Below are positions 3,084-35,263 of a stretch of 64,000 nt of DNA, in pieces. The stretch lies in the NCBI GenBank assembly GCA_964016885.1, contig OZ024742.1, forward strand, positions 221,216,001 through 221,280,000. Direction: 5' to 3'. Under the pieces are notes generated by a model, which searched no databases, had not been told where the DNA came from, and saw nothing but the letters and a program-made list of their open reading frames with translations. The position numbers were made by a program, and so were the translations under genes. This DNA is from Eledone cirrhosa (lineage: Eukaryota). The stretch's first letter is position 1, and each line of letters starts with the position of its first letter.

Positions 3084-3185
3084 GGTGTGGGAGCTTAGCC
3101 GTGTGGTTACTTCGTTTATACTTAAGAACTATCCAAATGTTTTCAAAGCTAACGTCTACTGGCGCTGTCTCGTACATTCATTTTT
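3084..3185 (+). ncRNA. Putative vault RNA gene, subtype A1 (carries a mismatch in the 3' block)
   Basis: TATATATA at 3054-3061. GGTGTGGGAGCTTAGCCGTGTGGTTACTTCG ... CGTCTACTGGCGCTGTCTCGTACATTCA then T5. Resembles the vtRNA 5' block TAGCTCAGCGGTTACTTCG and 3' block GACCCGCGGGCGCT. Confidence 0.6.
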
Positions 3186-3269
3186 GTCCCTTAAGCAAAT
3201 TTATCACCACCATCGTCACAAATTATTTTATTTTCAACAACTCACCACTTCAATAATTTCTGTGTATCG

Positions 3270-3603
3270 ATAAGGCGTCAGATAACGATTTGCGGTATAG
3301 TTATCTCCCTTTACCTTTTGATTTCAAATCCAGTCTCGGTTAAGCTTTACCTATCATCCTTACAGAGTCGATAAAATAAAGTATCGGTAACTCACTGGCG
3401 TCGATTTAATCGATTTCCTCACAAAAATGTTTGTCTTGTACCTAAATCAGAAACCATTATTATTTTAAAATGAGTTCAAATCAACCAAGATCAGCTTTGC
3501 TTTTCATCCTTCCGGGACCAATTAAGTAAAGTACAAGTTATGAACTGGTTTGACATTATCGAACTTCCCCTTCAAATTACAGGCCTTGTGTCTAAACTAG
3601 AAG
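3270..3603 (+). mobile_element. Two adjacent degraded SINE fragments in the spacer
   Basis: Two copies of the core GCTTT(A/G)C(C/T)T(A/T)TCATCCTT, followed by TCTTGTACCTAAA / GCCTTGTGTCTAAA tails like the intact SINE at 26633. Confidence 0.6.
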
Positions 3604-3997
3604 GGGCGCAGCACAAACACTGCCCTGCCCTATGCCCAGAGCCCATCACCCTCTCCTTCTTCTGTGGTCAAAAGTCTTTGCTTTTTTCCTTCTTTTCCTC
3701 TTAACTATGGCATTTATAGTCCTTTCCTCTACTTTCCCATACAACTAGATCTGCCCTTTTTTTTACCCCTTCCCTTTTTTCTCATTACTTTTGTTTTTAT
3801 CTTTCCTTTTCATATTTCCATCATTGTATAACATATTTTTTATTTGTATATAAATATTTGTGTATTATTGGTGTTCTATACAGAATATATTAATCTCTAA
3901 TCCCAAAATTATATGTTAGCATATAAAAAGAATGTTCTAGTTTATTTCTATAGTGACTTGATTTTTGCAATTCTACTGTTTGTTTGTGTGTGTCTGT

Positions 3998-4270
3998 ATG
4001 TGGTAATGGTGTTCTGCTCTTGATTGTAAGATCATGAGTTCAATTCCCTGTGATATGTGTCCTTGTACAAGATACTTTATTTAACGCTGCTCCACCTGGC
4101 AAAATCAAGTTGTACTTGTCATTCAAAGGGCCCCATCACACTGAATCTCCCTGAGAGCTATGTTAACAGTACACGTGTCCATGGATTACTCAGCTACTTG
4201 CATGTTAATTTCATCTGCAGGCTGTTCCGTTGGTCGAACAGTTGGAGCACCCATCGTCGGAACCGACAGA
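3998..4270 (+). mobile_element. tRNA-headed CORE-type SINE relic in the spacer (present in every complete spacer copy)
   Basis: TGTGGTAATGG, GAGTTCAATTCC (B box), then GTGTCCTTGTACAAGATACTTTATTT, which aligns by eye with TTCCTTGAGCAAGACACTTTATTTC of the SINE at 62368. Confidence 0.6.
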
Positions 4271-5114
4271 GACCCAACAGCAGCAATAGTGCATGTGTGT
4301 GTGTGTGTGTGTGTAATGCCTGGCTCTTTATTGATTTGTTACTTTTGTAAACCATAAACATATGATTTGATACACACCATATGCTTGTTGCTTGAACATG
4401 ACAAAACGAAGGGAGCCATCAATATTATAAAAATAGTCATTATTCTTGGGATAAATCCAAATGTGATACCACTAAGTAATTTCATTTGGCCTTGATAGAC
4501 TAGCTAGCCCTGTGCCACCAAAAATGATGGCTAATTGTAGTATTTTGTTTAATAATTCTTTTATTATAAACTTTTTTGTGTGGATAGACTATCCACAACT
4601 AACATAGATAACCAAGATAATATATTTGTGTGAATATCTATACATTTATGTATATGTATGGTCCTGAGTTGTAGGGATGCCGTATTGATATACTACATTT
4701 TTTGAACATTTGAAGCCTACCGGAACCCATCCCTCTCCAGGACTGAGTACATTAGATTTATTCAAGAGCGAGGAAGAATTGACACAAGTACTAGACTGGT
4801 GCTTCTTTTACCGACCTCAAAAGGATGAAACTCGGCGCGATTTGAACTCAGAGAACAGAAAGCCGGAACAAATTCCATAAAGCTTCCTATCCGACGTTCT
4901 GATGACTCTGCCAATTCGCTGCTTTTATCTATACATTTATATGTATGAGTATAAAATATAAACACACAAACACATATACACTCATACAAATATAGATATA
5001 TTCACACAAACACATATTCACACGCATACATTCACACAAGTGATATAAACACATAAAAACTAACATCATCATCATCATCATCGTTTAACATCTATCTTCC
5101 ACGCTAGCAGAAAG

Positions 5115-8100
5115 CCGGTAATATCACTTTAGAGTATTGGGTGCATCTTATTGTGGCACCAGTAATATCACTTTACAGAGTATTGGGTGCATCTTATTGT
5201 GGCACCAGTAATATCACTTTACAGAGTATTGCGAGCATCTTATTGTGGCACCAGTAATATCACTTTACAAGGGTATTGGGAGCATCTTATTGTGGCACCA
5301 GTAATATTACTTTACAGAGTATTGGGTGCATCTTATTGTGGCACCAGCAATATCACTTTACAGAGTATTGGGTGCATCTTATTGTGGCACCAGTAATATC
5401 ACTTTACAGAGTATTGGATGCATCTTATTGTGGCAGCAGTAATATCACTTTAGAGTATTGGGTGCATCTTATTGTGGCACCAGTAATATCACTTTACAGA
5501 GTATTGGGTGCATCTTATTGTGGCACCAGTAATATCACTTTACAGAGTATTGGATGCATCTTATTGTGGCACCAGTAATATCACTTTAGAGTATTGGGTG
5601 CATCTTATTGTGGCACTAGTAATATCACTTTACAGAGTATTGGGTGCATCTTATTGTGGCGCCAGTAATATCACTTTACAGAGGATTGGGTGTATCTTAT
5701 TGTGGCACCAGTAATATCACTTTACAGAGGATTGGGTGCATCTTATTGTGGCACCAGCAATATCACTTTACAGAGTATTGGGTGCATCTTATTGTGGCAC
5801 CAGTAATATCCCTTTACAGAGTATTGGGTGCATCTTATTGTGGCACCAGCAATACCACTTTACAGAGAATTGGGTGCCTCTTATTGTGGCGCCAGTAATA
5901 TCACTTTACAGAGGATTGGGTGCATCTTATTGTGGCACCAGTAATATCACTTTACAGGACTATTGGGAGCATCTTATTGTGGCACCAGTAATATCATTTT
6001 ACGAGACTATTGGGTGCATCTTATTGTGGCACCCATAACATCACTTTACAGAGTATTGGGTGCACCTTATTGTGGCACCAGTAATATCACTTTACAGAGT
6101 ATTGGAGCATCTTATTGTGGCATCAGTAATATCACTTTACAGAGTATTGGGTGCATCTTATTGTGGCACCAGTAATATCACTTTACAGAGTATTGGGTGC
6201 ATCTAATTGTGGCACCAGTAATATCACTTTACAGAGTATTGGGTGCATCTTATTGCGGTACCAGTAATATCACTTTACAGAGTATTGGGTGCACCTTATT
6301 GTGGCACCAGCAATATCACTTTACAGAGTATTGGGTGCATCTTATTGTGGCATGAGTAATATCACTTTACAGAGTATTGGTTGCATCGTATTGTGGCACC
6401 CATAATATCACTTTACAGAGTATTGGGTGTATCTTATTGTGGCACCAGTAATATCACTTTAAGAGAGTATTGGGTGCATCTTATTGTGGAACCAGTAATA
6501 TCACTTTACAGAGTATTGGGTGCATCTTATTGTGGCACCAGTAATATCACTTTACAGAGTATTGGGTGCATCTTATTGTGGCACCAGCAATATCACTTTA
6601 CGAGACTATTGGGTGCATATTATTGTGGGACCAGCAATATCACTTTACAGAGTATTGGGTGCATCTTATTGTGGCAGCAGTAATATCACTTTACAGAGTA
6701 TTGGGTGCATCTTATTGTGGCATCAGTAATGCCACTTTACAGAGTATTGGGTGCATCTTATTGTGGCACCAGTAATATACCTTTACAGAGTATTGGGTGC
6801 ATCTTATTGTGTCACCAGTAATATCACTTTACGAGAGTATTGGGTGCATCTTATTGTGGCACCAGTAAGCTCACTTTACAGAGTATTGGGTGCACCTTAT
6901 TGTGGCACCAGCAATATCACTTTCCAGAGTATTGGGTGCATCTTATTGTGGCACCAGTAATATCACTTTACAGAGTATTGGGTGCATCTTATTGTGGCAC
7001 CAGTAATATCACTTTACGAGAGTATTGCGTTCATCTTATTGTGGCACCAGCAATATCACTTTACAGAATATTGGGTCCATCTTATTGTGGCACCAGTAAT
7101 ATCCCTTTACAGAGTATTGGGTGCATCTTATTGTGTCACCAGTAATATCACTTAATGAGACTATCGGGTGCATCTTATTGTGGAACCCATAATATCACTT
7201 TACAAGACTATTGGGAGCATGTTATTGTGGCACCAGTAATATCACTTTAAGAGAGTATTGGGAATATCTTATTGTGACACCAGTAATATCACTTTACGAG
7301 AGTATTGGGAGCATGTTATTGTGGCACCAGTAATATCACTTTAAGAGAGTATTGGGTGCATCTTATTGTGGCACCAGTAATATCACTTTACGAGAGTATT
7401 GGGAGCATGTTATTGTGGCACCAGTAATATCACTTTAAGAGAGTATTGGGTGCATCTTATTGTGGCATCTGTAATATCACTTTACAGAGTATTGAGTGCA
7501 TCTTATTGTGGGACCAGTAATATCACTCTACGAGAGTATTGGGTGCATCTTATTGTGGGACCAGTAATATCACTTTACAGAGTATTGGGTGCATCTTATT
7601 GTGGGACCGGTAATAATCACTCTACGAGAGTATTGGGTGCATCTTATTGTGGCACCAGCAATATCACTTTATGAGGGTATTGGGTGTATCTTATTGTGGC
7701 ACCAGTAATATCACTTTACGAGAGTATTGGGTGCATCTTATTGTGGCGCCAGTAATATCACTTTACGAGAGTATTGGGTGCATCTTATTGTGGCACCCAT
7801 AATATCACTTTACGAGAGTATTGGGTGCATCTTATTGTGGCACCAGTAATATCACTTTACAGAGTATTGCGTTCATCTTATTGTGGCACCAGCAATATCA
7901 CTTTACGAGAGTATTGGGAGCATCTTATTGTGGCACCAGTAATATCACTTTACGAGAGTATTGGGTGCATCTTATTGTGGCACCAGTAATATCACTCTAC
8001 GAGAGTATTGGGTGCATCTTATTGTGGAACCAGCAATATCACTTTACGAGAGTATTGGGTGCATCTAATTGTGGCACCAGTAATATCACTTTCCAGAGTA

Positions 8101-10482
8101 TTGGGTGCATCTTATTGCGGCACCAGTAATATCACTTTACAGAGTATTGGGTGCACCTTATTGTGGCACCAGCAATATCACTTTACAGAGTATTGGGTGC
8201 ATCTTATTGTGGCACCAGTAATATCACTTTACAGAGTATTGGTTGCATCGTATTGTGGCACCCATAATATCACTTTACAGAGTATTGGGTGCATCTTATT
8301 GTGGCACCAGTAATATCACTTTAAGAGAGTATTGGGTGCATCTTATTGTGGAACCAGTAATATCACTTTACAGAGTATTGGGTGCATCTTATTGTGGCAC
8401 CAGTAATATCACTTTACAGAGTATTGGGTGCATCTTATTGTGGCACCAGCAATATCACTTTACGAGACTATTGGCTGCATATTATTGTGGGACCAGCAAT
8501 ATCACTTTACAGAGTATTGGGTGCATCTTATTGTAGCAGCAGTAATATCACTTTACAGAGTATTGGGTGCATCTTATTGTGGCATCAGTAATGCCACTTT
8601 ACAGAGTATTGGGTGCATCTTATTGTGGCACCAGTAATATACCTTTACAGAGTATTGGGTGCATCTTATTGTGTCACCAGTAATATCACTTTACGAGAGT
8701 ATTGGGTGCATCTTATTGTGGCACCAGTAAGCTCACTTCACAGAGTATTGGGTGCACTTTATTGTGGCACCAGCAATATCACTTTACAGAGTATTGGGTG
8801 CAACTTATTGTGGCACCAGTAATATCACTTTACAGAGTATTGGGTGCATCTTATTGTGGTACCAGTAATATCACTTTACGAGAGTATTGCGTTCATCTTA
8901 TCGTGGCACCAGCAATATCACTTTACAGAATATTGGGTCCATCTTATTGTGGCACCAGTAATATCCCTTTACAGAGTATTGGGTGCATCTTATTGTGTCA
9001 CCAGTAATATCACTTAATGAGACTATCGGGTGCATCTTATTGTGGCACCCATAATATCACTTTACAAGACTATTGGGAGCATGTTATTGTGGCACCAGTA
9101 ATATCACTTTAAGAGAGTATTGGGAGTATCTTATTGTGACACCAGTAATATCACTTTACGAGAGTATTGGGAGCATGTTATTGTGGCACCAGTAATATCA
9201 CTTTAAGAGAGTATTGGGTGCATCTTATTGTGGCACCAGTAATATCACTTTACGAGAGTATTGGGAGCATGTTATTGTGGCACCAGTAATATCACTTTAA
9301 GAGAGTATTGGGTGCATCTTATTGTGGCATCTGTAATATCACTTTACAGAGTATTGAGTGCATCTTATTGTGGGACCAGTAATATCACTCTACGAGAGTA
9401 TTGGGTGCATCTTATTGTGGGACCAGTAATATCACTTTACAGAGGATTGGGTGCATCTTATTGTGGGACCAGTAATATCACTTTACAGAGTATTGGGTGC
9501 ATCTTATTGTGGGACCGGTAATATCACTCTACGAGAGTATTGGGTGCATCTTATTGTGGCACCAGCAATATCACTTTACGAGGGTATTGGGTGTATCTTA
9601 TTGTGGCACCAGTAATATCACTTTACGAGAGTATTGGGTGCATCTTATTGTGGCGCCAGTAATATCACTTTACGAGAGTATTGGGTGCATCTTATTGTGG
9701 AACCCATAATATCACTTTACGAGAGTATTGGGTGCATCTTATTGTGGCACCAGTAATATCACTTTACAGAGTATTGGGTGCATCTTATTGTGGCGCCAGT
9801 AATATCACTTTACGAGAGTATTGGGTGCATGTTATTGTGGCACCCATAATATCACTTTACAGAGTATTGGGTGCATCTTATTGTGGGACCAGCTATATCA
9901 CTTTACAGAGTATTGGGTGCATCTTATTGTGGCACCAGCAATATCACTTTACGAGAGTATTGGGTGCATCTTATTGTGGCACCAGTAATATCACTTTACG
10001 AGAGTATTGGGTGCATCTTATTGTGGCACCCATAATATCACTTTACGAGAGTATTGGGTGCATCTTATTGTGGCACCAGTAATATCACTTTACAGAGTAT
10101 TGGGTGCATCTTATTGTGGCACCAGTAATATCACTTTACAGAGGATTGGGTGCATCTTATTGTGGCACCAGTAATATCACTTTACAGAGTATTGGGTGCA
10201 TCTTATTGTGGCACCAGTAATATCACTTTACGAGAGTATTGCGTTCATCTTATTGTGGCACCAGTAATATCACTTTACAGAGTATTGGGTGCATCTTATT
10301 GTGGCACCAGTAATATCACTTTACAGAGTATTGGGTGCATCTTATTGTGGCACCAGTAATATCACTTTACGAGAGTATTGGGTGCATCTTATTGTGGCAC
10401 CAGTAATATCACTTTACAGAGCATTGGGTGCATCTTATTGTGGCACCAGCAATATCACTTTACGAGAGTATTGGGTGCATCT
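5115..10482. repeat. Satellite array 2 (~116 monomers) with an internal 1862-bp duplication
   Basis: Same monomer as array 1. Rare variants recur at an 1862-bp offset (6381/8243, 7399/9261). Confidence 0.98.
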
Positions 10483-10882
10483 CGCTCGATTTTGGTGGGA
10501 AATAATTATCTTTCCTTGTTTTTTCTGAACCTTAAAGATTTAACCCTTTTTTGTTTGTTTGTATCCCTACATAACATCTAGCTATATTTGAGAGAAATTT
10601 GTTTACTATATCGCCAGCTGATGGAGACTCATTACATAGTGACTTTTCTCTATGACTCATTAACCTACGTATCAACAAGTCCTGCACATCTAATCGAATT
10701 ATTTCCCTATTACAAATTTTATGCGTCATTTGAAAAAAAATTATCTTCTCTCAATATACTTGTTCTTATGAAAAAGAAAAGAAAAGAAAAGGACTTTTGA
10801 ATACAATTTGATAACATCTGTGATACTATAACATAATATAACATTTATACAGTATATATAGTTAATTTGTTAATAATAGTTA

Positions 10883-10984
10883 GGTGTGGGAGCTTAGACG
10901 TGTGGTTACTTCGTTCATACCTAATATCTAAGCTGATGTTTTCAAACCTAACGACCACTGGCGCTGTCTCGTACATTCTTTTTT
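10883..10984 (+). ncRNA. Putative vault RNA gene, subtype A2
   Basis: GGTGTGGGAGCTTAGACGTGTGGTTACTTCG, a central loop different from A1, GACCACTGGCGCTGTCTCGTACATTC, T6. TATATATA lies ~30 bp upstream. Confidence 0.6.
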
Positions 10985-12316
10985 GTCCCTTAAGCGCTGT
11001 CTCGTACATTCATTTTTGTCCCTGAACCACCATCGTCACAAATTATTTTATTTTCAGCAACTCACCACTTCAATATTTTCTGTGTATCGATAAGGCGTCA
11101 GATAACGATTTGCGGCATAGTTATCTCCCTTTACGTTTTGAGTTCAAACCCAGTCTAGGTTAAGCTTTACCTTTCATCCTTACAGAGTCGATTCAATAAA
11201 ATATCGGTAACTTACTGGCGTCGATTTAATCGATTTCGCCACAAAATTGTTGGTCTTGTACCTAAATCAGAAACCATTATTATTTTAAAATGAGTTCAAA
11301 TCAGCCAAGATCAGCTTTGCTTTTCATCCTTCCGGGACCAATTAAGTAAAGTACAAGCTATGAACTGGTTTGACATTATCGAACTTCCCCTTCAAATTAC
11401 AGGCCTTGTGTCTAAACTAGAAGGGGCGCAGCCCAAACACTGCCCTGCCCTAGTGACTTCATTTTTGCAATTCTACTGTTTGTTTGTGTGTGTCTGTATG
11501 TGGTAATGGTGTTCTGCTCTTGATTGTAAGATCATGAGTTCAATTCCCTGTGATATGTGTCCTTGTACAAAATACTTTATTTCACGCTGCTCCACCTGGC
11601 AAAATCAAGTTGTACTTGTCATTCAAAGAGCCCCATCACACTGAATCTCCCTGAGAGCTATGTTAACAGCACACGTGTCCATGGATTACTCAGCTACTTG
11701 CATGTTAATTTCATCTGCAGGCTGTTCCGTTGGTCGAACAGTTGGACAACCCATCGTCGGAACCGACAGACGCCCAACAGCAGCAATAATGCATGTGTGT
11801 GTGTGTAATGCCTGGCTCTTTATTGATTTGTTACTTTTGTAAACCATAAACATATGATTTGATACACACCATATGCTTGTAGCTTGAACGTGACAAAACG
11901 AAGGGAGCCATCAATATTATAAAAATAGTCATATTCTTGGGATAAATCCAAATGTGATACCACTAAGTAATTTCATTTGGCCTTGATAGACTAGCTAGCC
12001 CTGTGCCACCAAAAATGATGGCTAATTGTAGTATTTTGTTTAATAATTCTTTTATTATAAACTTTTTTGTGTGGATAGACTATCCACAACTAACATAGAT
12101 AACCAAGATAATATATTTGTGTGAATATCTTTACATTTATGTATATGTATGGTCCTGAGTTGTAGGGATGCCGTATTGATATACTACATTTTTTGAACAT
12201 TTGAAACCTACTGGAACCCATCCCTCTCCAGGACTGAGTACAGTAGATTTATTCACACAAACATATATTCACACAAACATACATTCACACGAGTGATATA
12301 AACACATAAAAACTAA

Positions 12317-12470: not shown

Positions 12471-12479
12471 TAAATAACC

Positions 12480-13990
12480 AATGTAAGAAGAAATTCCAAA
12501 CCTGGAAGAATGGCCTAGAATCAAAAGGTATTAAAGTTAACTTGTCAACGCCCAAAGTCCTAGTATGTAGGAAGGAAAACAGGGCCCAGACTCTCACAGA
12601 GAAATGGCCTTGCTCAGTGTGCAAAGAAGTATATCATCATCATCATCATCATCATTTTACGTCCGCTTTTCCCTGCTTGCAAGGGTGGGACGGGAACTGA
12701 TTCTGGCTTGATTTCTACAGCTGGATGCCCTTCCTAACACCAACCTCCTTTACAGTGAGTGCTGGGTGCTTTTTTGCCGTGGCACCTCCACGACCACTTT
12801 GCAGTGGAATGATAGGGACCCCAGTCCCTATCATCTCATTTCTACAGCTGAGTAAACTGGAGCAATGTGAAATAAAGTGTCTTGCTCAAGGAAACAACAC
12901 ATCACCCAGTCTGAGATTTGAACTCACAACCTTTCGATTGCAAAGCCAATGCTCTAACCACTAAGCCATGTGCCTGTAGGTAGAAATTCCATCCTATGTC
13001 CCAAATGCAAACTGTGGGTACACAAGACATGGCGTGGAATCTCAGGCAGATTAACAAAGAAAGTAGGTTTTACGTGTGGCTGTTGCACAGGTGTAGTAAG
13101 TAGGAAGAGCTCATAGGATATACTCTCCTTCGAATGCCCAGAGGGCTCTGTAAATCTAGTAGATAGTTTCTGTTACCTGGGTGACTAAATTAGCAGTGGA
13201 GGAGTGTGTTCTGAAAGTACAGTAGCTACCTGGGTGACTAAATTAGCAGTGGAGGAGTGTGTTCTGAAAGTACAGTAGCCAGAGTGAGATCGGGTTGGGG
13301 AAAGTTCAGGGAGTTACAACCGCTGCTAACTACAAAACGTTTTTCTCTCAAAATGAAAGGCAGACTGTATGATGCATATATACGAATAGCAATGTTGCAT
13401 GGTAGTGAGACTTGAGTACTATGTGTAGAGGACCTGTGAAGATTGGAAAGAAATCAAGCTTCCATGCTTTGATGGATGTTTAATAGTAATATACATCAAT
13501 GGTAAAGCATAAATGAAATGAAAGAGAAATTAGGTATAAGAGGAATGAGATGCAGTATGCAGGAAAGGAGATTGCATTGGTATGGACATGTGATACATAT
13601 GAAGGATGACAGCTGCATAAAAAGGTGCACAACACTCAAAGTTGATGGAAGTTGTGGAGTGCGGAGACCTAGGAAGACTTGGAATGAGGTGATAAAAGCT
13701 GACTTTGCATAATTGCATCTCTTAAAGGCAGAACTGTGATCTCTGGCGCTATGCAGTAATATAGAAGACCCACCTTCCCATATGCAGGGACTGAGGCATA
13801 CATCTAGTATGCACTACCCTCCCTCCCATCATCCCCCACATTGTAATCGCCCCACCTACATCCTAACACCCCACCACTAGATCTACCTCCCCAGTTTCCC
13901 CATGTATCTCCTCCACCCAAGCCCCCATTTCACACTATAAAGTGGTCATGTAGGTGTTACAACAAAAACCACCATCACACACTGTAAAGC
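12480..13990 (+). mobile_element. Degenerate RTE-clade LINE, 3' portion of ORF plus 3' UTR, interrupted by a SINE
   Basis: Translates as WKNGLESKGIKVN..KWPCSVCK / VGRNSILCPKCKLWVHK..VDSFCYLGD..GWGKFRELQPLL..RRLHWYGHV..RPRKTW, with stops and frameshifts. Confidence 0.85.
12633..12974 (-). mobile_element. Young tRNA-CORE-RTE-tail SINE nested in the RTE LINE
   Basis: Near-identical to 58039-58380 and 62368-62686. A/B boxes on the minus strand (TGGCTTAGTGG, GAGTTCAAATC) and an (ATG)n tail. It splits the CSVCK/VGRNS motif of the LINE. Confidence 0.9.
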
Positions 13991-17699: not shown

Positions 17700-18146
17700 C
17701 ACCATACACAGAATACAGGGTGCATCTTATTGTGCAACCAGCAATATCACTTTATGAAACTATTGGGAGCATCTTATTGTGGCACCAGTAATATCACTTT
17801 ACAGAGTATTAGGTGCATCTTATTGTGGCACCAGTAATATCACTTTACAAGAGTATTGGGTGCATCTTATTGTGGCACCAGTAATATCACTTTACAGATT
17901 ATTGGCTGCATCTTATTGTGGCACCAGTAATACCACTTTACGAAAGTATTGGGTGCATCTTATTGTGGCACCAGTAATATCACTTTACAAGAGTATTGGG
18001 TGCATCTTATTGTGGCACCAGTAATATCACTTTAAGAGAGTATTGAGTGCATCTTATTATGGCACCAGTAATATCACTTTACAGAGTATTGGGTGCATCT
18101 TATTGTGGCACCAGCAATATCACTTTACAGAGTATTGGGTGCATCT
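17700..18146. repeat. Satellite array 3 (~9-10 monomers) with a natural, degenerate left end
   Basis: Begins directly after CTACGGTTGGATGCCCTTTTAAATGCTAACC (RTE-tail motif) with diverged first monomers. Confidence 0.95.
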
Positions 18147-18545: not shown

Positions 18546-18645
18546 GGGTGTGGGAGCTTAGCCGTGTAGTTACTTCGTTCATACCTATCTAAGCTGATGT
18601 TTTCAAACCTAACGACCACTGGCGCTGTCTCGTACATTCTTTTTT
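18546..18645 (+). ncRNA. Putative vault RNA gene, subtype A2
   Basis: GGGTGTGGGAGCTTAGCCGTGTAGTTACTTCG ... GACCACTGGCGCTGTCTCGTACATTC then T6. TATA lies ~30 bp upstream. Confidence 0.6.
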
Positions 18646-20272
18646 GTCCCTTAAGCGCTGTCTCGTACATTCATTTTTGTCCCTTAAGCACCATCGTCAC
18701 AAATTATTTTATTTTCAACAACTCACCACTTCAATATTTTCTGTGTATCGATAAGGCGTCAGATAACGATTTGCGGCATAGTTATCTCCCTTTACGTTTT
18801 GATTTCAAATCCAGTCTAGGTTAAGCTTTACCTTTCATCCTTACAGAGTCGATACAATAAAATATCGGTAACTCACTGGCGTCGATTTAATCGATTTCGC
18901 CACAAAATTGTTGGTCTTGTACCTAAATCAGAAACCATTATTATTTTAAAATGAGTTCAAATCAGCCAAGATCAGCTTTGCTTTTCATCCTTCCGGGACC
19001 AATTAAGTAAAGTACAAGTTATGAACTGGTTTGACATTATCGAACTTCCCCTTCAAATTACAGGCCTTGTGTCTAAACTAGAAGGGGCGCAGCCCAAACA
19101 CTGCCCTGCCCTAGTGACTTCATTTTTGCAATTCTACTGTTTGTTTGTGTGTGTCTGTATGTGGTAATGGTGTTCTGCTCTTGATTGTAAGATCATGAGT
19201 TCAATTCCCTGTGATATGTGTCCTTGTACAAAATACTTTATTTCACGCTGCTCCACCTGGCAAAATCAAGTTGTACTTGTCATTCAAAGAGCCCCATCAC
19301 ACTGAATCTCCCTGAGAGCTATGTTAACAGCACACGTGTCCATGGATTACTCAGCTACTTGCATGTTAATTTCATCTGCAGGCTGTTCCGTTGGTCGAAC
19401 AGTTGGAGCACCCATCGTCGGAACCGACAGAGGCCCAACAGCAGCAATAGTGCATGTGTGTGTGTGTGTGTGTAATGCCTGGCTCTTTATTGATTTGTTA
19501 CTTTTGTAAACCATAAACATATGATTTGATACACACCATATGCTTGTAGCTTGAACGTGACAAAACGAAGGGAGCCATCAATATTATAAAAATAGTCATA
19601 TTCTTGGGATAAATCCAAATGTGATACCACTAAGTAATTTCATTTGGCCTTGATAGACTAGCTAGCCCTGTGCCACCAAAAATGATGGCTAATTGTAGTA
19701 TTTTGTTTAATAATTCTTTTATTATAAACTTTTTTGTGTGGATAGACTATCCACAACTAACATAGATAACCAAGATAATATATTTGTGTGAATATCTATA
19801 CATTTATGTATATGTATGGTCCTGAGTTGTAGGGATGCCGTATTGATATACTACATTTTTTGAACATTTGAAGCCTACTGGAACCCATCCCTCTCCAGGA
19901 CTGAGTACAGTAGATTTATTCAAGAGCGAGGAAGAATTGACACAAGTACTAGACTGGTACTTCTTTTACCGACCTCAAAAGGATGAAACTCGGCGCGATT
20001 TGAACTCAGAGAACAGAAAGCCGGAACAAATTCCATAAAGCTTCCTATCCGACGTTCTGATGACTCTGCCAATTCGCTGCTTTTATCTATACATTTATAT
20101 GTATGAGTATAAAATATAAACACACAAACACATATACACTCATACAAATATAGATATATTCACACAAACACATATTCACTCGCATACATTCACACAAGTG
20201 ATATAAACACATAAAAACTAACATCATCATCATCATCATCGTTTAACATCTATCTTCCACGCTAGCAGAAAG

Positions 20273-22373
20273 CCGGTAATATCACTTTAGAGTATTGGGT
20301 GCATCTTATTGTGGCACCAGTAATATCACTTTAGAGTATTGGGAGCATCTTATTGTGGCACCAGTAATATCACTTTACGAGAGTATTGGGTGCATCATAT
20401 TGTGGCACCAGTAATATCACTTTACGAGAGTATTGGGTGCATCTTATTGTGGCACCAGTAATATCACTCTAGAGTATTGGGTGCATCTTATTGTGGCACC
20501 GGTAATATCACTTTAGAGTATTGGGTGCATCTTATTGTGGGACCAGTAATATCACTTTACGAGAGTATTGGGTGCATCTTATTGTGGCACCAGTAATATC
20601 ACTTTAGAGTATTGGGTGCATCTTATTGTGGCACCAGTAATATTACTTTACAGAGGATTGGATGCATCTTATTGTGGCACCAGTAATATCACTTTAGAGT
20701 ATTGGGTGCATCTTATTGTGGCACCAGTAATATTACTTTACAGAGTATTGGGTGCATCTTATTGTGGCAGCAGTAATATCACTTTACAGAGTATTGGGTG
20801 CATCTTATTGTGACACCAGTAATATCACTTTACAGAGTATTGGGTGCATCTTATTGTGGCAGCAGTAATATCACTTTACAGAGTATTGGGTGCACCTTAT
20901 TGTGGCGCCAGTAATATCACTTTACAGAGTATTGGGTGCATCTTATTGTGGCACCAGTAATATCACTTTACAGAGGATTGGGTGCATCTTATTGTGGCAC
21001 CAGTAATATCACTTTAGAGTATTGGGTGCATCTTATTGTGGCACCAGTAATATTACTTTACAGTGTATTGGGTGCATCTTATTGTGGCAGCAGTAATATC
21101 ACTTTACAGAGTATTGGATGCATCTTATTGTGGCACCAGTAATATCACTTTAGAGTATTGGGTGCATCTTATTGTGGCACCAGTAATATCACTTTACAGA
21201 GTATTGGGTGCATCTTATTGTGGCAGCAGTAATATCACTTTACAGAGTATTGGGTGCATCGTATTGTGGCACCAGTAATATCACTTTACAGAGTATTGGG
21301 TGCATCTTATTGTGGCACCAGCAATACCACTTTACAGAGAATTGGGTGCCTCTTATTGTGGTGCCAGTAATATCACTTTACAGAGGATTGGGTGCATCTT
21401 ATTGTGGCACCAGTAATATCACTTTACAGGACTATTGGGAGCATCTTATTGTGGCACCAGTAATATCATTTTACGAGACTATTGGGTGCATCTTATTGTG
21501 GCACCCATAACATCACTTTACAGAGTATTGGGTGCACCTTATTGTGGGACCAGTAATATCACTTTACAGAGTATTGGGAGCATCTTATTGTGGCATCAGT
21601 AATATCACTTTACAGAGTATTGGGTGCATCTTATTGTGGCACCAGTAATATCACTTTACAGAGTATTGGGTGCATCTAATTGTGGCACCAGTAATATCAC
21701 TTTACAGAGTATTGGGTGCATCTTATGGTGGCACCAGTAATATCACTTTACAGAGTATTGGGTGCACCTTATTGTGGGACCAGCAATATCACTTTACAGA
21801 GTATTGGGTGCATCTTATTGTGGCACCAGTAATATCACTTTAAGAGAGTATTGGGTGCAACTTATTGTGGCACCAGTAATATCACTTTACAGAGTATTGG
21901 TTGCATCGTATTGTGGCACCCATAATATCACTTTACAGAGTATTGGGTGCATCTTATTGTGGGACCAGCAATATCACTTTACAGAGTATTGGGTGCATCT
22001 TATTGTGGCACCAGCAATATCACTTTACGAGAGTATTGGGTGCATCTTATTGTGGCACCAGTAATATCACTTTACGAGAGTATTGGGTGCATCTTATTGT
22101 GGCACCAGTAATATCACTTTACGAGAGTATTGGGTGCATCTTATTGTGGCACCAGTAATATCACTTTACAGAGTATTGTGTGCATCTTATTATGACGCCA
22201 GTAATATCACTTTACAAAGTATTGGGTGCATCTTATTGTGGCACCAGTAATATCACTTTACGAGAGTGTTGCGTTCATCTTATTGTGGCACCAGCAATAT
22301 CACTTTACAGAGTATTGGGAGCATCTTATTGTGGCACCAGCAATATCACTTTACGAGAGTATTGGGTGCACCT
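20273..22373. repeat. Satellite array 4 (~46 monomers)
   Basis: Same monomer, with many 44-bp variants at the left end. Confidence 0.98.
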
Positions 22374-22771: not shown

Positions 22772-22873
22772 GATGTGGGAGCTTAGCCGTGTGGTTACTT
22801 CGTTTATACTTAAGAACTATCCAAATGTTTTCAAAGCTAACGACTACTGGCGCTGTCTCGTACATTCATTTTT
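22772..22873 (+). ncRNA. Putative vault RNA gene, subtype A1
   Basis: GATGTGGGAGCTTAGCCGTGTGGTTACTTCG ... GACTACTGGCGCTGTCTCGTACATTCA then T5. TATATATA at 22744-22751. Confidence 0.65.
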
Positions 22874-24803: not shown

Positions 24804-25907
24804 CCGGTAATATCACTTGAGAGTATTGGGTGCATCTTATTGTGGCACCAGTAATATCACTTTTCAGAGTATTGAGAGCATCTTATTGTGGCACCAGTAA
24901 TATCACTTTACAGAGGATTGGATGCATCTTATTGTGGCACCCATAATATCACTTTATAAGAGTATTGCGAGCATTTAATTGTGGCACCAGTAATATCACT
25001 TTACAGAGTATTGGGAGCATCTTATTGTGGCACCAGTAATATCACTTTACAGAGTATTGGGAGCATCTTATTATGGCACCAGTAATATCACTCTACAGAG
25101 TATTGGGAGCATCTTATTTTGGCACCAGTAATATCACTCTACAGAGTATTGGGAGCATCTTATTATGGCACCAGTAATATCACTTTAAGAGAGTATTGGG
25201 TGCATCTTATTGTGGCACCAGCAATATCACTTTACGAGAGTATTGGGTGCATCTTATTGTGGCACCAGTAATATTACTTTACAGAGTATTGGGTGCATCT
25301 TATTGTGGCACCCATAATATCACTTTACAGAGTATTGGGTGCATCTTATTGTGGTACCAGCAATATCACTTTACAAGAGTATTGGGTGCATCTTATTGTG
25401 GCACCCATAATATCACTTTACAGAGTATTGGGTGCATCTTATTGTGGCACCAGTAATATCACTTTACAAGAGTATTGGGTGCATCTTATTGTGGCACCAG
25501 TAATATCACTTTACGAGAGTATTGGGTGCATCTTATTGTGGCACCCATAATATCACTTTACGAGAGTATTGGGTGCATCTTATTGTGGCACCCATAATAT
25601 CACTTTACAGAGTATTGGGTGCATCTTATTGTGGCACCAGTAATATCACTTTACGAGAGTATTGGGTGCATCTTATTGTGGCACCCATAATATCACTTTA
25701 CAAGAGTATTGGGAGCATCTTATTGTGGCACCAGCAATATCACTTTACAGAGTATTGGGTGCATCTTATTGTGGCACCAGTAATATCACTTTACAAGAGT
25801 ATTGGGTGCATCTTATTGTGGCACCAGTAATATCACTTAACGAGTCTATCAGGTACATCTTATTGTGGCACCAGTAATATCACTTTACAAGAGTATTGGG
25901 TGCATCT
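24804..25907. repeat. Satellite array 5 (~24 monomers)
   Basis: Same monomer as the other arrays. Confidence 0.98.
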
Positions 25908-26820: not shown

Positions 26821-26912
26821 AATATAACGTACATGTATATATATATTGTTATATTTTAGATATATGTTGTTATAATATTGCAATATATATGTTATTTTCT
26901 ACATCAATATTT

Positions 26913-27004
26913 GTGTGCGGGCTTAGCCGTGTGGTTACTTCGATACATAATACTGAAATTATTTCTCCAATCTGCGACCATTGGCGCCATTCCGCGCACT
27001 TTTT
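26913..27004 (+). ncRNA. Putative vault RNA gene, subtype B
   Basis: GTGTGCGGG pairs with TCCGCGCAC (9 bp, 2 G-U), immediately followed by T5. Inner stem GCCG(T)GTGGTT/GACCATTGGC. GGTTACTTCG motif present. TATATAT at about -30. Confidence 0.72.
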
Positions 27005-27062
27005 GGCCTTGTTTTACATAGTGACTTTAAAGATTTAACCTTTTTTGTTTGTTTGTATCCCT

Positions 27063-27242
27063 AGGCGGATTCTGTTTTGTGTGTGTGTCTGTGTGTGATG
27101 CAAGCCGCCCATCCGTCGTCCGAGTTGGTTAGTTATGTTTGACGCGTAGCAGGCGGATTCTGTTTCGTGTGTGTGTCTGTGTGTGATGCAAGCCGCCCAT
27201 CCGTCGTCCGAGTTGGTTAGTTATGCTTGACGCGTAGCAGGC
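27063..27242. repeat. Two tandem copies of an 88-bp GC/CpG-rich unit unique to this spacer copy
   Basis: AGGCGGATTC starts at 27063 and 27151, with a partial third start at 27239. Absent from the other spacer copies. Confidence 0.95.
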
Positions 27243-27513
27243 CGCCAGCTGATGGAGACTCATTACATAGTGACTTTTCTCTATGGCTCATTAACCTACG
27301 TATCAACAAGTCCTGCACATCTAATCGAATTATTTCCCTATTACAAATGTTATGCGTCATTTGAAAAAAAATTATCTTCTCTCAATATACTTGTTCTTAT
27401 GAAAAAGAAAAGAAAAGAAAAGTCCTTTTGAATACAATTTGAAATCATTTGTGATACTATAACATAATATAACATTTATACAGTATATATAGTTAATTTG
27501 TTAATATGTGTTT

Positions 27514-27615
27514 GGTGTGGGAGCTTAGCCGTGTGGTTACTTCGTTTATACTTAAGAACTATCCAAATGTTTTCAAAGCTAACGACTACTGGCGCTGTCT
27601 CGTACATTCAGTTTT
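27514..27615 (+). ncRNA. Putative vault RNA gene, subtype A1 (T4 terminator)
   Basis: Same blocks as 22772. Ends CATTCAGTTTT. Confidence 0.62.
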
Positions 27616-28881
27616 GTCCCTTAAGCAAATTTATCACCACCATCGTCACAAATTATTTTATTTTCAACAACTCACCACTTCAATATTTTCTGTGTATCGA
27701 TAAGGCGTCAGATAACGATTTGCGGTATAGTTATCTCCCTTTACGTTTTGATTTCAAATCCAGTCTAGGTTAAGCTTTACCTTTCATCCTTACAGAGTCG
27801 ATAAAATGAAGTATCGGTAACTCACTGGCGTCGATTTAATCGATTTCCCCACAAAAATGTTGGTCTTGTACCTAAATCAGAAACCATTATTATTTTAAAA
27901 TGAGTTCAAATCAGCCAAGATCAGCTTTGCTTTTCATCCTTCTGGGACCAATTAAGTAAAGTACAAGTTATGAACTGGTTTGACATTATCGAACTTCCCC
28001 TTCAAATTACAGGCCTTGTGTCTAAACTAGAAGGGGCGCAGCCCAAACACTGCCCTGCCCTATGCCCAGAGCCTATTACCCTCTCCTTCTTCTGTGGCCA
28101 AAAGTCTTTGCTTTTTTCCTTCTTTTCCTCTTAACTATGGCATTTATAGTCCTTTCCTCTACTTTCCCATACAACTAGATCTGCCCTTTTTTTTACCCCT
28201 TCCCTTTTTTCTCATTACTTTTGTTTTTATCTTTCCTTTTCATATTTCCATCATTGTATAACTTATTTTTTATTTGTATATAAATATTTGTGTATTATTG
28301 GTGCTCTATACAGAATATATTAATCTCTAATCCCAAAATTATATGTTAGCATATAAAAAGAATGTTCTAGTTTATTTCTATAGTGACTTGATTTTTGCAA
28401 TTCTACTGTTTGTTTGTGTGTGTCTGTATGTGGTAATGGTGTTCTGCTCTTGATTGTAAGATCATGAGTTCAATTCCCTGTGATATGTGTCCTTGTACAA
28501 GATACTTTATTTCACGCTGCTCCACCTGGCAAAATCAAGTTGTACTTGTCATTCAAAGGGCCCCATCACACTGAATCTCCCTGAGAGCTATGTTAACAGC
28601 ACACGTGTTAATGGATTACTCAGCTACTTGCATGTTAATTTCATCTGCAGGCTGTTCCGTTGGTCGAACAGTTGAAGCACCCATCGTCGGAACCGACAGA
28701 GGCCCAACAGCAGCAATAGTGCATGTGTGTGTGTGTGTGTGTAATGCCTGGCTCTTTATTGATTTGTTACTTTTGTAAACCATAAACATATAATTTGATA
28801 CACACCATATGCTTGTTGCTTGAACATGACAAAACGAAGGGAGCCATCAATATTATAAAAATAGTCATTAGGTTCATAGCC

Positions 28882-31800
28882 AGTATTAGGTTCATCTTAT
28901 TGTGGCACCAGTAATATCACTTTACAGAGAATTGGGTGCATCTTATTGTGGCACCAGTAATATCACTTTACAGAGAATTGGGTGCATCTTATTGTGGCAC
29001 CAGTAATATCACTTTACAGAGTATTGGGTGCATCTTATTGTGGCGCCAGTAATATCACTTAACGAGACTATTGGGTGCATCTTATTGTGGCACCAGTAAT
29101 ATCACTTTACAAAGTATTGGGTGGATCTTATTGTAGCACCAGTAATATCACTTTACAAGACTATTGGGAGCATCTTATTGTGGCACCAGTAATATCACTT
29201 TACAAAATATTGGGTGCATCTTATTGTGGCACCAGTAATATCACTTTACGGGACTATTGGGAGCATCTTATTGTGGCACCAGTAATATCACTTTACGGGA
29301 CTATTGGGTGAATCTTATTGTGGCACCCATAATATCACTTTACAGAGTATTGGGTGCATCTTATTGTGGCACCAGTCATATCACTTTACAGAGTATTGGG
29401 TGCATCTTATTGTGGCATCAGTAATATCACTTTACAGAGTATTGGGTGCATCTTATTGTGGCACCAGTAATATCACTTTACAGAGTATTGAGTGCATCTT
29501 ATTGTGACGCCAGCAATATCACTTTACGAGACTATTGGGAGCATCTTATTGTAGCACCAGTAATATCACTTTATAGCATATTGGGAGCATCTTATTGTGG
29601 CACCAGTAATATCACTTTACAGAGGATTGGGTGCATCTTATTGTGGCACCAGTAATATCACTTTACAGAGTATTGGGTGCATCTTACTGTGGCACCAGTA
29701 ATATCACTTTACGAGAGTATTGGGTGCATCTTATTGTGGCAGCAGTAATATCACTTTACAGAGTATTGGGTGCATCTTATTGTGGGACCAGTAATATCAC
29801 TTTACGGGACTATTGGGTGCATCTTATTGTGGCATCAGTAATATCACTTTACAGAGTATTGGGTGCATCTTACTGTGGCACCAGTAATATCACTTTACGA
29901 GAGTATTGGGTGCATCTTTATGTGGCACCAGTAATATCACTTTACAGCATATTGGGAGCATCTTATTGTGGCACCAGTAATATCACTTTACGAGACTATT
30001 GGGAGCATCTTATTGTGGCACCAGTATTATCACTTTACAGCGTATTGGGAGCATCTTATTGTGGCACCAGTAATATCACTTTACGAGAGTATTGGGTGCA
30101 TCTTATTGTGGCACCCATAATATCACTTAACGAGACTATCGGGTGCATCCTATTGTGGCACCAGTAATATCACTTTACGGGACTATTGGGTGCATCCTAT
30201 TGTGGCACCAGTAATATCACTTTACAGAGTATTGGGTGCATCTTATTGTGGCACCAGTAATATCACTTTACGAGAGTATTGGGTGCATCTTATTGTGACA
30301 CCAACAATATCACTTTACAGAGTATTGGGTGCATCTTATTGTGGCACCAGTAATATCACTTTACAGAGTATTGGGTGCATCTTATTGTGGCACCAGTAAT
30401 ATCACTTTACAAAGTATTGGCTGCATCTTACTGTGGCATCAGTAATATCACTTTACAGAGTATTGGGTGCATCTGATTGTGGCATCAGTAATATCACTTT
30501 ACAGAGTATTGGGTGCATCTTATTGTGGCACCAGTAATAACACTTAACGAGTCTATCAGGTACATCTTATTGTGGCACCAGTAATATCACTTTACAGAGT
30601 ATTGGGAGCATCTTATTGTGGCACCAGTAATATCACTTTACAAAGTATTGGGTGCATCTTATTGTGGCACCAGTAATATCACTTAACGAGACTATCGGGT
30701 GCATCTCATTGTGGGACCAGTAATATCACTTTACAAAGTATTGGGCGCATCTTATTGTGACGCCAGCAATAGCACTTTATGAGACTATTGGGAGCATCTT
30801 ATTATAGCACCAGTAATATCACTTTACAGCGTATTGGGAGCATTTTATTGTGGCACCAGTAATATCACTTTACAGAGTATTGGGTGCATCTTATTGTGGC
30901 ACCAGTAATATCACTTAACGAGACTATCGGGTGCATCTCATTGTGGGACCAGTAATATCACTTTACAAAGTATTGGGCGCATCTTATTGTGGCACCCATA
31001 ATATCACTTTACAGAGTAATGGGTGCATCTTATTGTGTCACCAGTAATATCACTTTACAGAGTATTGGGAGCATCTTATTGTGGCATCAGTAATATCACT
31101 TTACAGAGTATTGGGTGCATCTTATTGTGGCACCCATAATATCACTTTACAGAGTATTGGGTGCATCTTATTGTGGCACCAGTAATATCACTTTACAGAG
31201 TATTGGGTGCATCTTATTGTGGCACCAGTAATATCACTCAACAGAGTATTGAGTGCATCTTTTTGTAGCACCAGTAATATCACTTTACAGCATATTGGGA
31301 GCATCTTATTGTGGCACCAGTAATATCACTTTACGAGACTATTGGGAGCATCTTATTGTGGCACCAGTAATATCACTTTACAGCGTATTGGGAGCATCTT
31401 ATTGTGGCACCAGTAATATCACTTTACGAGAGTATTGGGTGCATCTTATTGTGGCATCAGTAATATCACTTTACAGAGTATTGGGTGCATCTTATTGTGG
31501 CACCAGTAATATCACTTTACAGAGTATTGGGTGCCTCTTATTGTGGCACCAGTAATATCACTTAACGAGACTATCGGGTGCATCCTATTGTGGGACCAGT
31601 AATATCACTTTACAAAGTATTGGGTGCATCCTATTGTGGCACCAGTAATATCACTTTATAGAGTATTGGGTGCATCTCATTGTGGGACCAGTAATATCAC
31701 TTTACAAAGTATTGGGCGCATCTTATTGTGACGCCAGCAATAGCACTTTACGAGACTATTGGGAGCATCTTATTGTAGCACCAGTAATATCACTTTACAG

Positions 31801-33488
31801 CGTATTGGGAGCATTTTATTGTGGCACCAGTAATATCACTTTACAGAGTATTGGGTGCATCTTATTGTGGCACCAGTAACATCACTTTACAGATTATTGG
31901 GTGCATCTTATTGTGGCACCAGTAATATCACTTTACGGGACTATTGGGTGCATCTTATTGTGGCACCCATAATATCACTTTACAGAGTATTGGGTGCATC
32001 TTATTGTGTCACCAGTAATATCACTTTACAGAGTATTGGGAGCATCTTATTGTGGCATCAGTAATATCACTTTACATAGTATTGGGTGCATCTTATTGTG
32101 GCACCCATAATATCACTTTACAGAGTATTGGGTGCATCTTATTGTGGCACCAGTAATATCACTTTACAGAGTATTGGGTGCATCTTATTGTGGCACCAGT
32201 AATATCACTCAACAGAGTATTGAGTGCATCTTTTTGTGGCACCAGTAATATCACTTTACAGCATATTGGGAGCATCTTATTATGGCACCAGTAATATCAC
32301 TTTACGAGACTATTGGGAGCATCTTATTGTGGCACCAGTAATATCACTTTACAGCGTATTGGGAGCATCTTATTGTGGCACCAGTAATATCACTTTACGA
32401 GAGTATTGGGTGCATCTTATTGTGGCACCCATAATATCACTTTACAGAGTATTGGGTGCATCTTATTGTGGCATCAGTAATATCACTTTACAGAGTATTG
32501 GGTGCATCTTATTGTGGCACCAGTAATATCACTTTACAGAGTATTGGGTGCATCTTATTGTGGCACCAGTAATATCACTTAACGAGACTATCGGGTGCAT
32601 CCTATTGTGGCACCAGTAATATCTCTTTACAAAGTATTGGGTGCATCCTATTGTGGCACCAGTAATATCACTTTACAGAGTATTGGGTGCATCTTATTGT
32701 GGCACCAGTAATATCACTTTACGGGACTATTGGGTGCATCTTATTGTGGCACCAGTAATATCACTTTACGAGAGTATTGGGTGCATCTTATTGTGGCACC
32801 AGCAATATCACTTTACGAGAGTATTGGGTGCATCTTATTGTGGCACCAGTAATATTACTTTACAGAGTATTGGGTGCATCTTATTGTGGCACCCATAATA
32901 TCACTTTACAGAGTATTGGGTGCATCTTATTGTGGTACCAGCAATATCACTTTACAAGAGTATTTGGTGCATCTTATTGTGGCACCCATAATATCACTTT
33001 ACAGAGTATTGGGTGCACCTTATTGTGGCACCAGTAATATCACTTTACAAGAGTATTGGGTGCATCTTATTGTGGCACCAGTAATATCACTTTACGAGAG
33101 TATTGGGTGCATCTTATTGTGGCACCCATAATATCACTTTACGAGAGTATTGGGTGCATCTTATTGTGGCACCCATAATATCACTTTACAGAGTATTGGG
33201 TGCATCTTATTGTGGCACCAGTAATATCACTTTACGAGAGTATTGGGTGCATCTTATTGTGGCACCCATAATATCACTTTACAAGAGTATTGGGAGCATC
33301 TTATTGTGGCACCAGCAATATCACTTTACAGAGTATTGGGTGCATCTTATTGTGGCACCAGTAATATCACTTTACAAGAGTATTGGGTGCATCTTATTGT
33401 GGCACCAGTAATATCACTTATCGAGTCTATCAGGTGCATCTTATTGTGGCACCAGTAATATCACTTTACAAGAGTATTGGGTGCATCT
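28882..33488. repeat. Satellite array 6 (~100 monomers)
   Basis: Same monomer, with diagnostic variants ACGGGACTATT, CAGCGTATT and TTAACGAGACTATCGGG. Confidence 0.98.
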
Positions 33489-34697
33489 CGCTCGATTTTG
33501 CTGGCAAATAATTATCTTTCCTTGTTTTTTCTGAACCTCTTAGATGCTCGAAATCGACTCTTTTCCGGATTAGGGTTAGTTAGGGTTTCTGTTTTACGCG
33601 GAGGAAGGGGGTGGGGCAATTACGAGCATCTAAGAGGTCAGATTAGTTGATAGCAAAAAAAAAATAAAGAGGTGATACAATTATTTCCGACCAAACGTGA
33701 GAGGTGTGTACATCTGCGAAACTCCGACGGTCTTTTCACCCCCTTTTCACTCCCATTTGTCTACAGATCTGGTTACCTATTGGTTTGGAGGTCATATTCG
33801 TCGATAACAAGCAATAAAAAAAAAAAAAAAAAGAGAGAAAACTCCGAGGAAGTGGGAGGAGCACCAATCCTCCGAGCATCTTGGAAGTTAGATTAGTTGA
33901 TAGCACACGATTAAAAACAACAACAAACGAGGAAAAAATGTTTTTTGCCACTGAGATCCAGGCAGTGTTTTACAATAATATTAACCAGAGTAATGTTATA
34001 GGTTGTCTATAGGAAGGTAATGACATTTCTACAATTATAAAAATGCGAAAAACCAAAACACGCACGCACGGACCCACACATAGATACATACAATTACATT
34101 TAATCAACATAATGACAGTTATGAGAAAGTTATGAGGAAATAGAAACGAAAAATAGATATTTAAAGACGAAACTATATTTACGTGTCATTAATATAATGT
34201 ACAAAGGGCGATGGATTGGCAGTATCGGTAGAGGGTCGGACGCCATGCTTTGACGCATAGAGTTACGGTCTTTGCCATTCTGAGTTCAAATCCCGCCGAG
34301 GTTAACTTTGCCTTTCATCCTTACGGGGTCGATAAAATAAAGTACCAGTAATGCACTGGATAATTGCTGGCCTTGTGCCAAAAAGTAGAAACAATTAATA
34401 TAATGTACAAAGGGCGGTGGATTGGCAGTATCGGTAGAGGGTCGGACGCCATGCTTTCCAGCATAGTTACGTCCCTTTACGATCTGAGTTCAAATCCCGC
34501 CGAGGTTGACTTTGCCTTTCATCCTTACGGGGTCGATAAAATAAAGTACCAGTAATGCACTGGTGAATTGCTGGCCTTGTGCCTAAAGTAGAGACAATTA
34601 ATATAACGTACATGTATATATATATATATATTGTTATATTTTAGATATATGTTGTTATAATATTGCAATATATATGTTATTTTCTACATCAATATTT

Positions 34698-34789
34698 GTG
34701 TGCGGGCTTAGCCGTGTGGTTACTTCGATACATAATACTGAAATTATTTCTCCAATCTGCGACCATTGGCGCCATTCCGCGCACTTTTT
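34698..34789 (+). ncRNA. Putative vault RNA gene, subtype B
   Basis: Identical by eye to 26913-27004. Confidence 0.72.
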
Positions 34790-35161
34790 GGCCTTGTTTT
34801 ACATAGTGACTTTAAAGATTTAACCTTTTTTGTTTGTTTGTATCCCTACATAACATCTAGCTATATTTGAGAGAAATTTGTTTACTATATCGCCAGCTGA
34901 TGGAGACTCATTACATAGTGACTTTTCTCTATGGCTCATTAACCTACGTATCAACAAGTCCTGCACATCTAATCGAATTATTTCCCTATTACAAATGTTA
35001 TGCGTCATTTGAAAAAAAATTATCTTCTCTCAATATACTTGTTCTTATGAAAAAGAAAAGAAAAGAAAAGTCCTTTTGAATACAACTTGAAATCATTTGT
35101 GATACTATAACATAATATAACATTTATACAGTATATATAGTTAATTTGTTAATATGTGTTT

Positions 35162-35263
35162 GGTGTGGGAGCTTAGCCGTGTGGTTACTTCGTTTATACT
35201 TAAGAACTATCCAAATGTTTTCAAAGCTAACGACTACTGGCGCTGTCTCGTACATTCAGTTTT
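35162..35263 (+). ncRNA. Putative vault RNA gene, subtype A1 (T4 terminator)
   Basis: Identical by eye to 27514-27615. Confidence 0.62.

Follow-up and report, generated by a model that had tools for sequence, protein, structure and literature searches.

A tandem array of predicted vault RNA genes with a private minisatellite spacer in the genome of Eledone cirrhosa

We analyzed a 64,000-nucleotide stretch of the Eledone cirrhosa genome (the window; positions 221216001-221280000 of contig OZ024742.1, here C3, in the 3.0-Gb assembly GCA_964016885.1) that contains eight short units resembling vault RNA genes. A 22-nt block in the 5' part of these units occurs eight times in the window, at positions 3093, 10892, 18556, 22781, 26921, 27523, 34706, and 35171, always on the plus strand, and had 0 matches in 100 shuffles. 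The predicted starts of the units (3085, 10884, 18548, 22773, 26913, 27515, 34698, and 35163) differ by 0 to 2 nt from the eight positions given in an initial annotation of this DNA. That annotation had also described single substitutions in three copies, which we find in the 5' block of the units at 10884 and 18548 and in the 3' block of the unit at 3085.

Comparison with the Rfam Vault covariance model (RF00006), which the initial annotation had proposed, showed that all eight units match over the full model (positions 1-99 of 99). Seven reach the curated cut-off of 34 bits, with scores of 34.1 to 41.4 bits, and the eighth scores 30.8 bits (E 0.0095). Four of the genes, all on the plus strand, are of subtype A1: 3085..3185, which carries the substitution in the 3' block and ends in T5 (36.4 bits); 22773..22873, which also ends in T5 (41.4 bits); and 27515..27615 and 35163..35263, which end in T4 (41.4 bits each). 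The two A2 genes both end in T6 and have a duplication of their 3' 33 bp; 10884..10984 has one substitution in the A box region (30.8 bits) and its duplication in tandem at 10961-11023, and 18548..18645 has an A box substitution, a 3-nt deletion in the loop (34.1 bits), and its duplication at 18622-18689. The two subtype B genes, 26913..27004, with a loop that lacks a B-box-like motif, and 34698..34789, end in T5 and score 39 bits each.

To place the units in their surroundings, we searched 224 kb of sequence, comprising 120 kb to the left and 40 kb to the right in addition to the window, allowing up to 5 substitutions. The units are part of an array of 15 copies that spans about 67 kb on one strand, from about -32015 to 35263 in window positions, with seven copies beyond the left edge of the window. 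The array contains seven A1, four A2, and four B copies, which are 97 to 99.9% identical within a subtype, and the copies to the left of the window score up to 43.3 bits on RF00006. When counted from the predicted +1 to the end of the T4-T6 run, all 15 copies have lengths of 92 to 101 nt (their ends being predicted), which falls within the range of 80 to 150 nt, ending in a Pol III T-run, that PMC8824774 gives for vault RNAs. Box A, TAGCCGTGTGG, followed by TTACTTCG, is present in 13 of the 15 copies, and the other two have one substitution. Genome-wide, 11 RF00006 matches exceeded the cut-off among the 49 candidates scored, and all 11 lie within the array, as do 13 of the 17 genomic matches to the exact core pattern, while the remaining four are truncated or decayed. 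Matches to microRNA families in the window were TA or CA microsatellites, far under cut-off. Contigs from three sequencing runs of one sample, of unrecorded kind and possibly from the assembled sample itself, covered 30 of 30 bins across 34400-35800; they hold the units with a few subtype-level differences and are not independent support. By Rfam criteria, and as judged from sequence, the array is a real vault RNA gene family.

The genes sit in spacers of 2 to 4 kb (one, with extra inserts, is 7.2 kb) between 11 blocks of a minisatellite with a 46-bp unit, and these blocks range from 0.4 to 16 kb and total about 42 kb. Each spacer contains either a single A gene or a pair in which an A gene lies 465 to 600 bp downstream of a B gene, and the parts that spacers share are 91 to 99.9% identical. 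In the window, minisatellite blocks lie on the plus strand at 764..2683, 5115..10482, 17710..18146, 20273..22373, 24804..25907, 28882..33488, and 36530..43324, the last of these at the right end of the array. We found that a 37-nt minisatellite probe had 206 exact matches in the genome and that 206 of 206 were inside the array; the minisatellite is therefore local and is the array's own spacer. The initial annotation had described the genes as hidden in a satellite, and this relation is reversed by the finding of the minisatellite, by exact 37-nt match, at no other locus. It is best read as a spacer that grew along with the gene array. Short, diverged relatives of the 46-bp unit sit inside nearby dispersed repeats, which suggests that the unit grew out of a dispersed repeat element.

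We also examined the sequence features that could direct RNA polymerase III (Pol III) transcription. A TATATAT motif is present at -29 to -31 in 15 of 15 copies (for example at 27484..27490, plus strand, at -31 of an A1 gene, and at 34669..34675, plus strand, at -29 of a B gene), and a T4-T6 run ends all 15. For the 8 copies in the window, this agrees with the initial description of a TATA at about -30 and a T4-6 run. An A-box block lies at +12 to +22. The B box has the consensus GTTCRANNC, and the best match to it in subtype A, TTTCAAA(G/C)C, has one mismatch and lies at +57, which is upstream of its usual place by about 10 nt (in A1, TTTCAAAGC at 27571..27579, plus strand). Motif scoring thus bears out the earlier statements that the canonical B box is not conserved and that TTTCAAA(C/G)C appears in subtype A alone. 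In subtype B and in a third loop type, C, which is described below, there was no B-box match better than three mismatches beyond +35. Neither A nor B units have GTTCRANNC beside the 3' block, and we therefore keep them out of the canonical A- and B-box (type 2) promoter class. The units also lack part of a U6-type (type 3) promoter. The three upstream types found at U6 genes of this genome have a TATA at -30 and the element TATGC(A/T)AAT at -77 to -79, and this element is present within 300 bp upstream in 0 of the 15 vault copies, all of which have the TATA.

The A and B subtypes share 28 of their first 30 nt, whereas their loops barely align, and all that their flanks have in common is a weak, AT-rich match of 39 bp around the TATA. 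Subtypes A1 and A2 differ at 2 to 4% of flank positions, at 3 to 4 of 59 block positions, and at 8 to 11 of 37 to 40 loop positions. The excess of loop over block differences has Fisher P values of 0.003 to 0.033 in four comparisons that are not independent. The excess of loop over flank differences in A2 has P values of 1e-6 to 5e-5 in three of four copies and 0.075 in the fourth, in which the downstream flank has been replaced; the limits of the regions in this test were chosen after the alignment had been viewed, and the copies are not independent of each other. Clusters of A1/A2 differences are also present immediately upstream of +1 and past the terminator, and an old diverged patch within converted flanks therefore suffices to explain the loop excess without positive selection.

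The minimum-energy fold pairs the ends of the RNA in nine of nine copies (six from the window and three from outside it), so each folded copy has the paired ends and variable loop of a panhandle. The stability of these folds is modest, with z values of -0.38 to -3.05 and z ≤ -2 in only three of the nine copies. The complementary termini of the initial annotation do pair in these folds. We then aligned eight copies from this genome with two vault RNAs from outside it on a structure of 19 named pairs, which was derived from these same, related sequences. In this alignment 93.2% of cells pair, compared with 31 to 53% when the partners are slid. Five pairs change on both sides, a number reached by 28 of 500 shuffles; one of these pairs changes within the genome (A-U in subtype A but G-C in subtype B), and the other four change relative to the outside RNAs. 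These pairing statistics support a panhandle, short of proof.

Outside the array, five genome searches identified at least 14 further copies, of which 8 are A-like, 1 is B-like, and 5 are of type C, a loop type absent from the array. Of the 12 dispersed copies tested, 11 have their start no more than 6 nt from the predicted +1, and 0 of 12 have flanks in common with the array. Two further copies start at about +1 to +4 as judged by eye, and many dispersed copies stop within the loop. Target-site duplications at 12 of these copies were at best 4 to 8 nt or TA repeats, none convincing, and the case for retroposition therefore rests on the 5' boundary of the copies. We infer that the copies may have been inserted from an RNA template, which these boundaries would fit, and the boundaries would then mark the 5' end of the RNA. 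Such body-only copies are indirect evidence that points to past transcription of the units. The one dispersed B copy agrees with the present B loop over about 40 nt. Two independent A-type copies (L148 and L150) stop at, or close to, one common position in the loop (about nt 57, where the loop hairpin ends), a hint that priming or cleavage may favor this site. Among the type C copies, one is full-length (L151:1515-1607, on C4 at 22.85 Mb) and four (L152, L153, L154, and L157) are truncated at the 3' end. The full-length copy scores 33.9 bits, keeps both conserved blocks, and has no TATA at -30; the source gene of type C may have been lost or may be unassembled.

We searched the genome for the vault proteins MVP and TEP1, for whose orthologs the initial annotation had called, and found exons of both. 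For MVP, contig C24 contains three shoulder-domain exons without stops, one of which matches solved MVP with an E value of 1.6e-19. For TEP1, contig C4 contains TROVE exons, then DUF4062 exons on the same strand, then a P-loop exon; two DUF4062 exons match human TEP1 (E 9e-15 and 7e-15), and the P-loop exon match is weak. A comparison of a TROVE exon with solved structures gave no match, which argues only against Ro60. A second TROVE locus, on contig C10, encodes Ro60; over 172 residues it shares 97% identity with a protein of Octopus bimaculoides, which puts the genome in the octopus group of cephalopods. One TEP1 DUF4062 exon (L111:8742-8993, minus strand of C4) has the residues CLAE aligned to human CLGE. 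NADase activity has been reported for human TEP1 (bioRxiv 10.64898/2026.05.01.722283), and the glutamate of CLAE is likely the catalytic residue described for the TEP1 NADase, with provisional position numbering.

The Rfam matches, the low copy number, the presence of MVP and TEP1, and the octopus-group taxon support the proposal in the initial annotation of a mollusc vault RNA gene cluster. We consider it highly probable that the units form a 15-copy tandem array of vault RNA genes that are likely transcribed by Pol III into panhandle RNAs of 90 to 100 bases, which would bind TEP1 and in part enter MVP vaults. In the proposed sequence of events, TFIIIB would bind the TATA, and Pol III would start at a G about 30 bp past it, with recruitment helped by the A box; in subtype A, the one-mismatch B box at +57 would help as well. 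The polymerase would stop in the T-run, and the RNA would fold into a panhandle. By analogy with mammals and trypanosomes, the closed ends and the conserved, bulged blocks of the RNA would bind the TROVE domain of TEP1, and a fraction of the RNA would enter MVP vault particles; the TEP1-binding and vault-entry steps are known from these organisms (PMC3762200, PMC10491885, PMC12547018). As to the history of the locus, a unit of 2 to 4 kb, holding one gene or a B and A pair, SINE (short interspersed nuclear element) remnants, and the 46-bp minisatellite, may have been multiplied by unequal exchange. The flanks would have been homogenized while old loop variants persisted. Retrotransposon enzymes would occasionally have returned copies of the transcripts to the genome, and one paralogue, type C, would survive as dispersed copies only. 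Several of our observations weigh against this account. One window copy scores under the Rfam cut-off, two have A-box substitutions, and two end in T4 only; the TATA sits in AT-rich DNA; the canonical B box and the upstream U6 element are both absent; most folds are of modest stability; and the target-site duplications are unconvincing.

The absence of a canonical B box could instead be a sign of decay, in which case the units would be descendants of vault RNA genes that are now largely silent passengers of minisatellite expansion. The substitutions in the conserved blocks of three of the eight window copies and the two T4 ends would fit this explanation, and so would the high identity within subtypes, as such copies are too young to show decay. 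The dispersed A-type copies, which resemble older sequence, would likewise attest past rather than present transcription. However, the genome offers no better vault gene elsewhere among the candidates scored, as the exact core pattern outside the array is found only in truncated or decayed form; the MVP and TEP1 exons examined are open; the blocks are conserved between subtypes relative to the loops; and the dispersed B copy shares its loop with present B genes. On this evidence we regard silent passengers as improbable. A different question is whether the genes are transcribed with the help of a B box borrowed from neighboring SINE copies. Yeast U6 uses a B box downstream of the gene, and a perfect GTTCRANNC on the same strand lies within 700 bp of 13 of the 15 copies, every one in a SINE remnant. 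These remnants are passengers of the repeat unit; one from a very high-copy tRNA-like SINE lies at 3289..3398 (plus strand), about 200 bp downstream of genes of subtype A, and the same SINE, tandemly doubled, lies at 34188..34612 (plus strand), upstream of the B gene at 34698. However, no such box lies within 700 bp of two of the four B genes, mutations affect the nearest SINE box (+259) in 8 of the 11 A copies, and the copies arose by duplication from two or three ancestral units. In addition, a GTTCRANNC lies within 300 bp of 15 to 20% of the positions in 147 kb of flanking sequence, and we regard a borrowed box, too, as improbable.

Explanations that sever the units from vault RNA altogether fare worse. 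An internal A box, the dispersed copies, and the presence of true SINEs 200 to 250 bp away would be expected if the units were the heads of SINE-like elements or chance tRNA-like repeats. A tRNA-derived SINE with head, body, and tail would be present in thousands of copies, but only 14 dispersed copies, a lower bound, were found by the five genome searches, and we largely reject this candidate. Summed contig depth was 37 to 266 over the genes compared with up to 2e7 over the adjoining SINE, although contig depth is not copy number and the runs behind it may be from the assembled sample. ARAGORN identified 0 tRNA genes, no tail or LINE (long interspersed nuclear element)-like 3' part follows the T-run, and the match spans the whole Vault model, all of which make a SINE origin very improbable. 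Equally slight is the chance that the units are RNAs of the Y type that serve Ro60, this genome's other TROVE protein. Y RNAs are also clustered Pol III panhandles, and Ro60 is encoded on C10, but a scan of all 4227 Rfam families to an E value of 5 placed Vault alone, and no Y RNA family, over the unit positions.

As a vault RNA array, the locus can be compared with known members of the family. The human VTRNA1-1/2/3 cluster and the rat and bullfrog vault RNAs (RF00006) have the same length of 90 to 100 nt, a 5' A box followed by TTACTTCG, and a 3' GGCGC block, and they also share with the present units the paired ends, variable loop, T-run, upstream TATA, and clustering by tandem duplication. 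Vault RNA promoters are described in general terms in PMC7916137 and PMC7279448. In contrast to the 15 copies found here, mammals have 1 to 4 (PMC10491885), and the present array also differs from these vault RNAs in having no canonical B box beside the 3' block and in having a private minisatellite as its spacer. A link to the protocadherin locus was not seen in the 224 kb examined, where no dedicated test for it was made.

The initial annotation had considered that a protostome vault RNA family amplified inside a satellite would be new, but lophotrochozoan vault RNAs, including those of the mollusc Lottia gigantea, are already in print and in Rfam. By 2009, homologues had been described in two lophotrochozoan lineages (PMC2770079), and PMC8824774 uses RF00006 sequences of L. 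gigantea and Helobdella robusta, names Macrostomum (Macrostomum lignano), and reports five expressed vault RNAs in Fasciola hepatica, four of them clustered in 133 kb. These RNAs have the box A and TTACTTCG anchor in common with the present units, and those of Fasciola also have the clustering and a poorly conserved B box, given as "GTTC or one nucleotide variations" (PMC8824774). Under the relaxed standard of PMC8824774, the one-mismatch box of subtype A would be acceptable, whereas nothing in subtype B resembles a B box. The present locus differs from the lophotrochozoan vault RNAs, those of Lottia and Helobdella being compared by description only, in being a dense, recently homogenized array with three subtypes. 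We found no paper on cephalopod vault RNA in the literature searched, which covered neither subscription journals nor genome annotations, and loci of this kind may already carry a label from automated annotation. An exact-pattern scan of a metagenome collection identified 15 loci outside this genome, 2 of which are vault RNAs by Rfam and 13 of which are not. The two (L117:390-499, 68.5 bits, and L126:385-493, 69.2 bits, scores in the order given) have a TATA near -30, a T-run, and a canonical B box with 0 mismatches, and their contigs are probably host DNA. Their box A, TAGCTCAGTGG, differs at 3 positions from TAGCCGTGTGG of the array.

Another small-RNA gene family in this genome is arranged in a similar way. 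Among 48 listed U6 matches, at least 32 belong to a single array on contig C19, at a spacing of about 1.8 kb (C19:31780605-31840331; L072-L099), with 5' ends that differ at a few positions from those of the two top-scoring U6 genes, which are solitary and lie on C5 and C9. Like the vault array, the U6 array, an example of tandem small-RNA gene arrays under concerted evolution, consists of near-identical units of a few kilobases with one RNA gene each and with SINE insertions carried along; unlike the vault units, the U6 units have the TATGC(A/T)AAT element, and the vault array is set apart by its long minisatellite blocks of variable length and its distinct subtypes of loop. Tandem arraying is thus not peculiar to the vault RNA genes of this genome. 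At 6 of 30 U6 loci examined, an inverted tRNA-like SINE abuts the TATA and replaces TATGC(A/T)AAT (e.g., L076:1277-1471), and these loci either have been inactivated or are U6 genes that a divergent SINE drives. In the window, very high-copy tRNA-like SINE families occupy 34400-34600, 12634-12975, 58039-58378, 59957-60070, and 62368-62687; three SINE places score 30 to 32 bits on the Rfam tRNA model, and ARAGORN finds no tRNA there. The minus strand of 52200-54400 contains putative LINE-like endonuclease and reverse transcriptase frames of 180 to 279 codons, in separate frames.

A more specific possibility, which we put forward tentatively and think doubtful, is that several loop variants are under selection within an array that is homogenized in other respects and serve different partners or tissues, with subtype B using a promoter of TATA and A box without a B box or U6-type element, a type that has not been described for vault RNA genes. 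With vault RNAs of molluscs and other lophotrochozoans catalogued before, the array changes the known range of the family little, and a routine Rfam scan finds its copies. The array does extend to cephalopods a family of RNAs whose function is still unclear. Its three loop subtypes with common ends could serve as probes for the part of the RNA that binds TEP1 and for loop specialization, and the subtype that lacks a B box would, if expressed, show the minimal needs of Pol III at vault RNA genes.

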